DNA of 4,034 bases from a virus (taxonomy: Duplodnaviria > Heunggongvirae > Uroviricota > Caudoviricetes). The notes under the pieces were generated by a model. That model was not told where the DNA came from, did no database searches, and worked only from the letters and a program-made list of their open reading frames with translations. The stretch covers positions 1 through 4,034 of the IMG/VR virus record IMGVR_UViG_2728369188_000007; one strand, written 5' to 3'. Positions within the stretch are counted from its first letter, which is position 1, and each line of letters begins with the position of its first letter. Below are positions 2,019 through 4,034 of the stretch, one piece after another. The position numbers and the translations under genes are program-made.

Positions 2019-2042
2019 GGTCACTCCAAGTGAACTTTTATC

Positions 2043-2071
2043 TTGACGATTTCACCGTGCGATCGTATGTT
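2043..2071 (+). promoter_or_regulatory. Candidate rightward lytic promoter (pR-like): -35 TTGACG, 17-bp spacer, -10 TATGTT
   Basis: TTGACG at 2043-2048, a 17-nt spacer at 2049-2065 (containing the GATC-bearing palindrome CGATCG), and TATGTT at 2066-2071, lying in the 125-bp divergent region between the cI start and the Apl-like gene. The predicted start near 2078 gives a roughly 66-nt leader to the ATG at 2144. Not experimentally supported. Confidence 0.35.
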
Positions 2072-2143
2072 TATGGTGTTCACAAAATACAAACGATCCG
2101 TATTCGTCCTGATTAATCATCATTAAACGAGGAATGTTGCATC

Positions 2144-3720: not shown

Positions 3721-3948
3721 ATGGCTGATGCAATGGATCTCGTACAGCAGCGCGTTGAAGAAGAACGCCAACGCCATATCCGTGCTGCCCGTGCCAAAAC
3801 GCCGGGCGTGTCCCGCGTGCTTTGCATTGATTGTGAAGCGCCAATTCCGCCAGCACGCCGCCGTGCCATTCCGGGTGTGCAGCTTTGCATTACCTGCCAG
3901 GAAATCGCAGAGCTGAAAGGCAAACATTACAACGGAGGTGCTGTATGA
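3721..3948 (+). CDS. TraR/DksA-family C4 zinc-finger protein, 75 aa
   Basis: Translation contains CIDC-x17-CITC (CxxC-x17-CxxC), the DksA/TraR zinc-finger signature, after a short acidic/basic helical N-terminus. AGGAGA lies 8 nt upstream of the ATG at 3721. Stop TGA at 3946-3948 overlaps the next start codon. Confidence 0.8.
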   Translation: MADAMDLVQQRVEEERQRHIRAARAKTPGVSRVLCIDCEAPIPPARRRAIPGVQLCITCQEIAELKGKHYNGGAV

Positions 3949-4034
3949 GCACCATCCTGAAATGGGGTAATGACTCCAACTTACTGATAGTGTTTTATGT
4001 TCAGATAATGCCCGATGACTTTGTCATGCAGCTC
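3945..4034 (+). CDS. Start of a further rightward gene (first 30 codons, truncated by the window end); product unknown
   Basis: ATG at 3945-3947 overlaps the TraR-like stop (ATGA) and is preceded by GGAGGTG with a 4-nt spacer. The frame stays open to position 4034 (MSTILKWGNDSNLLIVFYVQIMPDDFVMQL...). Too short to appear in the ORF track. Confidence 0.45.
   Translation, partial: MSTILKWGNDSNLLIVFYVQIMPDDFVMQL

Follow-up and report, generated by a model that had tools for sequence, protein, structure and literature searches.

A probable 186-type lysis-lysogeny switch with face-to-face promoters and its own immunity specificity in a Peduoviridae prophage

Introduction

The closest characterised system to the genetic switch described here is that of coliphage 186. 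In its annotated record, the starts of the rightward promoter pR and the leftward promoter pL lie 62 bp apart; the -10 hexamer of pL, CATGAT, occupies positions -10 to -5 relative to the ATG of apl, and its -35 hexamer, TTGCGA, positions +13 to +18. The CI sites annotated at FL, FR and pB follow the format (A/C)TTCAC-N5-G(T/A)GAAT. At 186 pR there are three CI operators, placed two helical turns apart (PMC3675496). The sites of 186 Apl are 6-bp direct repeats 10-11 bp apart, at least three of which must be adjacent for binding, and in P2-like phages the promoter starts are separated by 40-60 bp (PMC7498355).

Here we analyse a stretch of viral DNA of 4,034 bases (the window) and in particular the 125 bp between two of its divergent genes. 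Judging from sequence comparisons, this region very probably controls the choice between lysis and lysogeny in a temperate prophage of the 186 family, one that has an immunity specificity of its own.

Results

Gene content of the window

The window corresponds to the left end of a prophage of the 186 family (Peduoviridae), with genes ordered as in coliphage 186. The minus strand carries the ORF of a tyrosine integrase (int, 1-1131), a YdcA-like ORF of 63 amino acids (1242-1433) and the immunity repressor gene cI (1449-2018), whose product of 189 amino acids is placed in the 186 CI family by Pfam and PDB matches. On the plus strand lies an apl-like gene (2144-2365) for a Cox-like excisionase/repressor of 73 amino acids (PHROG 575, E = 6.1e-31); it heads the early lytic operon, divergent from cI. 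The cII gene follows (2398-2907; PF06892, E = 4e-42), and downstream of it, on the same strand, Fil, DUF5347, DUF2732 and a DksA/TraR zinc-finger protein are encoded. The last ~69 bases of the window are the end of an IS1 element, which interrupts the phage dam gene.

The repressor contains both PF07022 (E = 2.8e-33) and PF16452 (E = 2.7e-27). It is 33% identical to 186 CI (BLASTP, E = 7e-38) and matches the structure 2FJR (E = 2.6e-31), as well as the C-terminal domain that forms a 14-mer wheel in 2FKD (E = 1.9e-14). The Apl-like protein finds no match in Pfam and has a weak, marginal similarity to 186 Apl at its N-terminus only; in RefSeq, its gene is still labelled "hypothetical". In the initial annotation, this had been read as a switch of the 186 type, with a 186-family cI on one side and, on the other, a first lytic gene resembling Cox/Apl; gene content, order and domains all agree with this reading. 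The extent that it gave for the intergenic region, 2019-2143, is equally exact: the ATG of cI is the complement of 2016-2018 and that of the apl-like gene starts at 2144, leaving 125 bp as compared to 129 bp in 186.

The immunity module (1400-2400) is present in 657 of 5,426 complete E. coli genomes (~12%) and is 100% identical in strain S40. The closest phage records reach only ~70% identity across part of it, and none of those in the searched collection has the immunity type of the window. From ~2130 rightward, the DNA is 93-94% identical to that of Klebsiella Peduoviridae. Since this identity begins only there, cI and most of the switch constitute a separate mosaic module.

Comparative material

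The annotated 186 record and the complete prophage copy of E. coli S40, which lies at ~3,255,100-3,290,000 of NZ_CP010235.1, served as references. Phage records and E. coli genomes supplied heteroimmune relatives, among them prophages and phages of Enterobacterales such as Klebsiella and Salmonella. From species-representative genomes came 19 loci and from IMG/VR 80 close copies; eight more distant 186-family phages complete the set.

Four loci share the immunity type of the window: L009, L028 (strain E2348/69), L011 (Enterobacter) and L012 (Klebsiella). All four have essentially the same CI N-terminal domain as the window, and an intergenic region of equal length, 125 bp, which can be aligned with that of the window. 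The remaining loci fall into about 11 further immunity types, many of them encoding a nearly identical Apl-like protein. Compared with the window, the Enterobacter and Klebsiella loci differ in 50-64% of synonymous codons (cI N-terminal domain and apl codons 10-73); in the 125-bp intergenic region the differences number just 12-13, and one of the nine first apl codons differs. The conservation of these first codons could partly reflect the protein sequence or a constraint on translation initiation. Among the 80 close copies, variation is concentrated halfway along the pR spacer, at 2055-2058; at 2056, the C of the window is the minor allele. The functional significance that we ascribe to the elements of the switch stems from this comparative evidence, not from statistics.

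The predicted rightward promoter pR

The number of promoter-like sites that scanning finds in the window, six, is no higher than in shuffled sequences (6.1 ± 2.5). The best rightward candidate within 2000-2200 consists of a -35 hexamer TTGACG (2043-2048) and a -10 hexamer TATGTT (2066-2071), separated by 17 bp and scoring 9/12, with a predicted start at ~2078-2079.

The pattern TTGAC(A/G)-17-TAnnnT occurs at the corresponding place in nearly every locus compared. When 12 heteroimmune types are aligned on it, TTGAC and the TA...T of the -10 hexamer are invariant, and there is little information in the flanks or in most of the spacer: outside a GATC tetranucleotide, spacer columns hold 0.2-1 bit, except for a near-invariant G at -19. 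In a few prophage copies the -10 hexamer has undergone promoter-down changes (CATGTT in E2348/69, TGTGTT in Klebsiella R390), and scattered singletons affect the -35 and -10 hexamers of others. It is well supported by this conservation that TTGACG-17-TATGTT represents the rightward early promoter, pR. The same hexamers had been singled out, with the right coordinates, in the initial annotation; the comparison adds that they match a skeleton kept at one place across heteroimmune relatives.

A conserved GATC in the pR spacer

The GATC in the spacer (2061-2064; pR -17 to -14) is a Dam site, with 2 bits of information in the 12 heteroimmune types. Its invariance in all 12 non-186 types is on par with that of core promoter positions. 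It is also found in Salmonella phage RE-2010, and is absent from 186 and its near relatives.

We considered a link between this site and a phage-encoded Dam methylase. RE-2010 fits such a pairing, but ESSI-2 encodes a D12 methylase (Dam) and has a pR spacer without GATC, and in SEN1 and SW9 the GATC is shifted by 1 bp with no methylase detected in the sequence examined; given these three phages, the link is not established. The literature searched offered nothing directly relevant on the classes of 186 operators or on early promoters of P2-like phages being controlled by Dam, and no published explanation for the spacer GATC was found. According to a review, excision of the P2-like prophage SopE-phi is favoured by Dam, through a target that is not known (PMC7380047).

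That the spacer GATC is a functional Dam methylation site, providing the lytic promoter with an epigenetic or replication-coupled input, is conceivable, yet we consider it rather unlikely. If true, pR strength or repressor binding could follow full, hemi- or no methylation, and the methylation state could influence the outcome of induction or infection, perhaps together with the Dam methylase that these phages encode in the operon of pR.

Part of this invariant stretch lends itself to another reading, in which cI is transcribed from a leftward promoter in the intergenic region that overlaps pR back-to-back, as in lambda, with operators shared for CI. On the minus strand, the invariant ATCnTA (2062-2067) reads TAnGAT, which resembles a -10 hexamer with T1, A2, A5 and T6 kept in 12 of 12 types, and the genes themselves are divergent. 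Such a hexamer, however, has no -35 partner. Between cI and pR, no leftward candidate scores 8/12 or more; the only one at 8/12 is the face-to-face pL described below, and the others within 2000-2200 score 7/12 at positions that are not conserved. A -10 element would explain neither why G is invariant at 2061 nor why position 4 of the hexamer has a non-consensus G, and 186 has no promoter of this kind. We regard this arrangement as highly improbable.

The predicted leftward promoter pL

The best leftward candidate within 2000-2200 has its -35 hexamer TTGAAA at 2157-2162 and its -10 hexamer CAACAT at 2134-2139, 17 bp apart on the minus strand. It scores 8/12, equal to 186 pL, and is predicted to start at ~2127-2128. 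The -35 hexamer covers +13 to +18 relative to the apl-like ATG, within codons 5-7; the -10 hexamer, at -10 to -5, directly follows GAGGA (2129-2133), the ribosome-binding site of the apl-like gene. Of the initial statement that both hexamers lie inside the apl-like gene, the part on the -35 hexamer stands; the -10 hexamer is upstream of the ATG. Both offsets are those of the annotated, experimentally mapped pL of 186. Near-186 phages show the same geometry, with a -35 hexamer TTGTAA in BIS20.

The -35 hexamer TTGAAA is identical in 27 of 27 non-186 loci, including a group whose Apl starts with MSTDISIRVPKE. In the same 27 loci apl codons 5 and 6 are always ATT TCA, while neighbouring codons vary synonymously: isoleucine at codon 7 is encoded in three different ways. 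The -10 hexamer follows the pattern CAnnAT in 28 of 28 loci, being CAACAT, CAGTAT or CAATAT in those other than 186.

These observations bear on a simpler explanation: there would be no face-to-face pL, and cI would be expressed only from the CII-dependent promoter pE or from another one further to the right. The conservation of ATTTCAA and of the hexamer resembling a -10 would then be due only to the N-terminus of the Apl-like protein and the initiation of its translation. Indeed, the hexamers score below the threshold of the promoter scan, ATTTCAA encodes a conserved Ile-Ser-Ile and CAACAT is situated between the ribosome-binding site and the start codon of apl. Reduced synonymous variation is, moreover, common at the 5' ends of genes. 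Mapped 186 pL, however, has identical offsets and also scores 8/12. Against the simpler explanation also speak the single codon each at Ile5 and Ser6 in all 27 loci next to three at Ile7, the conservation that persists where the Apl sequence differs otherwise, as in the MSTDISIRVPKE group, and the TTG of the -35 hexamer, kept in 186 (TTGCGA) and BIS20 (TTGTAA) despite different residues. The pattern at synonymous sites and the exact 186 geometry thus weaken this explanation, which we hold to be very unlikely.

The leftward candidate, called a weak match in the initial annotation, is well supported as pL, by its 186-identical offsets and the 27/27 invariance of its -35 hexamer: it appears to be the positional homologue of mapped 186 pL, firing leftward into cI and int. 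Equally well supported is the predicted geometry, in which pR and pL are face-to-face and their transcripts overlap by ~48 bp. Across types, 66-89 nt separate the -10 hexamer of pR from the ATG of apl. Calibrated on 186, the predicted start-to-start distance is ~48 bp in the window and ~42-65 bp in its relatives; for the window, this prediction departs from the 62 bp of 186 that the initial annotation cited. Alignment with 186 and its relatives, proposed at the outset as a way to define the switch, has located pL; the CI operators remain provisional.

Candidate CI operators

Chance levels for repeats come from shuffling the 125 bp 2,000 times with dinucleotides preserved. The palindrome TCACT-cca-AGTGA (2021-2033), one of two repeats put forward initially, has a 5-3-5 format found in 17% of shuffles (P = 0.17). 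It overlaps the ribosome-binding site of cI, GGAG (complement of 2025-2028), and an alternative GTG; the ATG of cI, also said to be overlapped, is not. The other repeat, GTGAAC (2030-2035) with GTTCAC (2078-2083) bracketing the promoter, was correctly located but is at chance level, at least two six-bp inverted pairs occurring in 74% of shuffles (P = 0.74). We read GTGAAC and GTTCAC as half-sites of two separate elements. The repeats suggested as CI operators were, in sum, partly real elements in a wrong pairing, and their assignment is as unproven as was then said.

The first of these elements is a candidate operator that we call OL: a 17-bp 6-5-6 dyad with 5/6 matching positions, GGTCAC-TCCAA-GTGAAC (2019-2035), which contains the 5-3-5 palindrome and overlaps the cI ribosome-binding site. 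It adjoins the start codon of cI and ends 7 bp upstream of the -35 hexamer of pR, off the core promoter; the annotated operator region of 186 pR likewise begins at the cI start codon. Its format and its core TCAC-N5-GTGA are those of the 186 FL, FR and pB sites. A 6-5-6 dyad with at least 5/6 matches is seen in 56% of shuffles (P = 0.56), and the 38-kb S40 locus contains a single copy of the core, against 0.49 expected. Relatives of the same type keep OL except for spacer position 2029 and one singleton; in the diverged same-type copies, the only substitution falls in the N5 spacer.

A weak dyad, ACGAT-N10-ATCGT (2047-2066), occupies the pR spacer. Its centre, 2056.5, coincides with the hot spot of variation at 2055-2058 and lies at about the alignment column of the central 186 pR operator dyad, ATCTCT-caattg-GGAGAT. 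Dyads with five-bp arms of this sort average ~2 per 125-bp shuffle, and we propose it as a possible middle operator with low confidence.

The only symmetric element above chance is a long imperfect inverted repeat (2061-2098): its 18-nt arms, GATCGTATGTTTATGGTG (2061-2078) and CACAAAATACAAACGATC (2081-2098), are complementary at 14 of 18 positions around a centre at 2079/2080 and span the DNA from the pR -10 hexamer to ~+20. An equally good repeat arises in 0.55% of shuffles (P = 0.0055). The initial annotation had missed it, as it had the spacer GATC, though GTTCAC (2078-2083) is a part of the repeat.

Five other immunity types possess perfect, type-specific dyads from about +1 of pR, as revealed by a pR-aligned dyad scan: GTACCC-aatt-GGGTAC, AGGTTT-N7-AAACCT and the co-varying GGGTTT-N7-AAACCC, GGTTTG-N5-CAAACC, and ATTCCC-N5-GGGAAT. 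In two of these types, copies of the half-site recur upstream of the -35 hexamer (P = 0.03 and P = 0.015). The type of the window has no perfect dyad at the pR start: its canonical 17-mer (2078-2094) reaches only 3/6 as a dyad, and among direct-repeat offsets none is significant (P = 0.85). On these two figures we set aside a KP12-style pair of 17-bp operators exactly 59 bp apart, which is a weak possibility only.

Taken together, the candidate operators are centred at 2027, 2056.5 and 2079.5-2086. Their spacings of ~23-30 bp (~29.5 bp between sites, or 59 bp from outer to outer) differ from 21 bp and do not match the two-turn phasing of 186. Provisionally, the likeliest targets of CI are the repeat at 2061-2098, the best candidate near pR, and OL at 2019-2035.

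The symmetry of these elements might instead belong to RNA, as structure in the leader of cI (the pL transcript) or in that of the early lytic transcript. Both arms of 2061-2098 would be present in a pL transcript, where the minimum-energy fold pairs them, and the perfect dyads at ~+1 in other types could form 5'-terminal hairpins. The folding energies are nevertheless ordinary (z-scores of -0.74 and +1.08 for the leaders of pL and pR, respectively), Rfam yields no match and, of the two arms, the pR transcript includes just one. Other types have their recurring half-sites upstream of the -35 hexamer, outside the pR transcript, and substitutions among same-type copies do not restore pairing in 2061-2098. 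We reject RNA structure in the leaders on the z-scores and the empty Rfam search; as an account of the repeats, it has hardly any likelihood.

Further CI sites were sought beyond the intergenic region. With up to three mismatches, the 17-bp motif has 19 matches in the complete prophage against 14.1 expected, none of them at pB or at FL/FR-like positions. The same-type alignments contain no conserved island; distal sites of another sequence class could have escaped the motif search. The exact sequence GWGAACTTTTA occurs in 38 kb only at pR and at the ogr/B promoter; by our own estimate, corrected for all k-mer pairs, a shared 9- to 11-mer is expected by chance at ~0.07-0.15. We discarded it as an immunity-specific operator: KP12, with a different cI, has the same sequence upstream of its B promoter. 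A one-mismatch copy within cI, GTGTACTTTTA (1910-1920), was dismissed as an FL-like site, being absent from the Enterobacter and Klebsiella loci of the same type. An inverted repeat at 2337-2345/2370-2378 lacks conservation and shows no substitutions that restore pairing; it, too, was dismissed, as a candidate for FR or for a CII site.

Candidate Apl-like and CII sites

Two phased direct repeats on the plus strand, TTAATCA (2113-2119) and TTAAACG (2123-2129), start 10 bp apart. L011 and L012 keep both while the three nucleotides between them vary, and the Ewingella type has CTAATCA and CTTAACG at the same spacing. Tentatively, we take them for sites of the Apl/Cox type. We see only two, against seven in 186. 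We found no Apl motif common to the att-proximal region or to the types that share the Apl helix-turn-helix.

The inverted half-sites at the start of cII, ATGTTTG-N13-CAAACAT (2398-2424), are those of the CII site annotated in 186 for the activation of pE (positions 2936-2963 of the 186 record). This stretch is coding sequence, and its conservation may come in part from the protein.

Discussion

We propose a working scheme for the switch, drawn largely by analogy with 186. From pR, transcription would proceed rightward through the apl-like gene, cII, fil and the early lytic operon. As in 186, the strong pR would suppress the weak pL by transcriptional interference, and repression of pR by CI would relieve pL. 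The Cox/Apl-like protein would act between the promoters and serve as an excisionase, and CII would activate a third, leftward promoter, pE, from its half-sites at the start of cII. This logic is already known from phage 186, which makes the present analysis a useful annotation rather than new biology. The placement of pR, pL and pE is a map usable in studies of induction, superinfection immunity and prophage engineering, and heteroimmune relatives built on one promoter skeleton are a resource on how specificity changes in 186-family repressors.

The P2 Pe-Pc switch resembles that of the window in its face-to-face early and lysogenic promoters, 40-60 bp apart, and in a first lytic gene of the Cox type with a dual function. 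Published work describes a P2 C repressor that recognises two direct repeats, and P2 as lacking a CII/pE establishment pathway. In contrast, the window encodes a two-domain repressor of the 186 CI type and possesses a cII gene with its half-sites, which sets it apart from the C/Cox systems of P2. It differs as well from the back-to-back pRM/pR of lambda by its predicted face-to-face pL.

Heteroimmune 186-like relatives include KP12, vB_EcoM-813R9, Kapieceevirus and the Felsduovirus RE-2010/Fels-2 group. Their apl-like, cII and downstream early genes are nearly alike, and they share the pR skeleton with its spacer GATC, the positions of the pL hexamers and the 66-89 nt between pR and apl. What differs is the N-terminal domain of cI and the DNA from cI to ~2130, which are type-specific, with ~70% identity or no possible alignment. 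Some of these relatives have clear perfect dyads at the pR start (GTACCCAATTGGGTAC, ATTCCC-N5-GGGAAT), whereas the window has only the imperfect long repeat.

From coliphage 186 (Eganvirus ev186) the window is separated by a CI that is 33% identical, an Apl-like protein that can barely be aligned and switch DNA that is unrelated. The predicted start separation is ~48 bp instead of 62, three operators at two-turn spacing are not recognisable, and neither copies of the FL, FR and pB motif nor seven Apl repeats are seen in the window's prophage. A GATC in pR and a Dam methylase in the early operon distinguish the window further, 186 having neither. In common with 186, it has the order int, cI, then divergent apl, cII and fil, a CI with both domains, the predicted face-to-face promoters and the CII half-sites at the start of cII. 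Both place pR 15-25 bp from the cI start codon and pL at identical offsets from apl, and the core TCAC-N5-GTGA of the 186 sites adjoins the cI start codon in the window. Altogether, the switch is an ordinary, hitherto uncharacterised heteroimmune variant of the well-known 186 family.

Mosaic organisation of the switch

The sequence of the window changes affinity at about position 2130. Rightward of this mosaic junction it is 93-94% identical to Klebsiella Peduoviridae, whereas leftward, through cI and the switch, identity is about 70% or below. The leftward promoter pL (hexamers at 2134-2139 and 2157-2162) is therefore a passenger of the apl module, and the rightward promoter pR and its operators belong to what moves with cI. 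Within the window's own immunity type, the CI protein of locus L009 is 99% identical to that of the window. The contigs of L009 and L016 carry enterobacterial 186-like prophage DNA under the label 'MAG: Bacillota bacterium'; mis-binning is the probable cause, or else contamination of the metagenome-assembled genomes concerned. Also in this immunity type, the E2348/69 prophage (L028) has two CI-family genes side by side (126-1049 and 1100-1669). In other relatives the encoded CI is long, its N-terminal helix-turn-helix domain being present in duplicate (L007, 1096-1974; L004, 1-774).

Genes and sites flanking the switch

Between int and cI, the minus strand has a YdcA-like ORF of 63 aa (1242-1433; NF007463, phrog_6000) with a signal-peptide-like N-terminus, which has the appearance of a 'moron' gene for lysogenic conversion. 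At the start of cII, the half-sites ATGTTTG-N13-CAAACAT (2398-2424) match the inverted half-sites of the annotated CII binding site of 186, so a CII-activated leftward promoter, pE, should start close to the end of the apl-like gene.

At the right edge of the window lies an IS1 terminus (3966-4034). The insertion breaks a phage D12-class dam gene, which starts at 3945, after only 7 codons, and its position is upstream of the place that the replication gene occupies in intact copies; this prophage copy is thus probably defective.

Candidate operators and sequence elements around pR

In other immunity types, the arms of inverted repeats co-vary between related types (L006 and L010 against L014 and L022; L015 against L017): the pair TCCAAAAG...CTTTTGGA is matched by TTCCCAAA...TTTGGGAA, and AAGGTTT...AAACCTT by AGGGTTT...AAACCCT. 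Such arms are likely the operator half-sites of those types.

A different element, GAGAACTTTTAAG, is found 2 bp upstream of the -35 box of the ogr/B late-activator promoter in S40 (L002, 1399-1409) and KP12 (L003, about 860-875). It shares GAACTTTTA with the stretch just upstream of the pR -35 box (window 2032-2040). Because GAGAACTTTTAAG occurs whatever the immunity type, we rejected it as an operator specific to immunity; a role as an UP-like element is possible.

The pR hexamers themselves carry single substitutions in E2348/69 (L028), Klebsiella sp. R390 (L012), K99B (L008) and several IMG/VR loci, giving CATGTT and TGTGTT at -10 and TTGGCA, TTTACG and TTGATG at -35. This suggests decay of lytic promoter activity in resident prophages, or selection against it. 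Among 80 near-identical copies, polymorphism also concentrates in the central part of the pR spacer (2055-2058); at 2056 the window's C is the minor allele, 59 of the 80 having T.

Most remaining spacer positions vary as well between heteroimmune types, but a GATC at -17 to -14 of pR (window 2061-2064 and the corresponding column of L003-L027 and L116) is kept in all 12 heteroimmune switch types. We found no explanation in the literature for this invariant spacer GATC, and no link between it and phage-encoded Dam was established. In this respect the 12 types differ from 186 and its close relatives, whose pR is devoid of GATC at -17 to -14.
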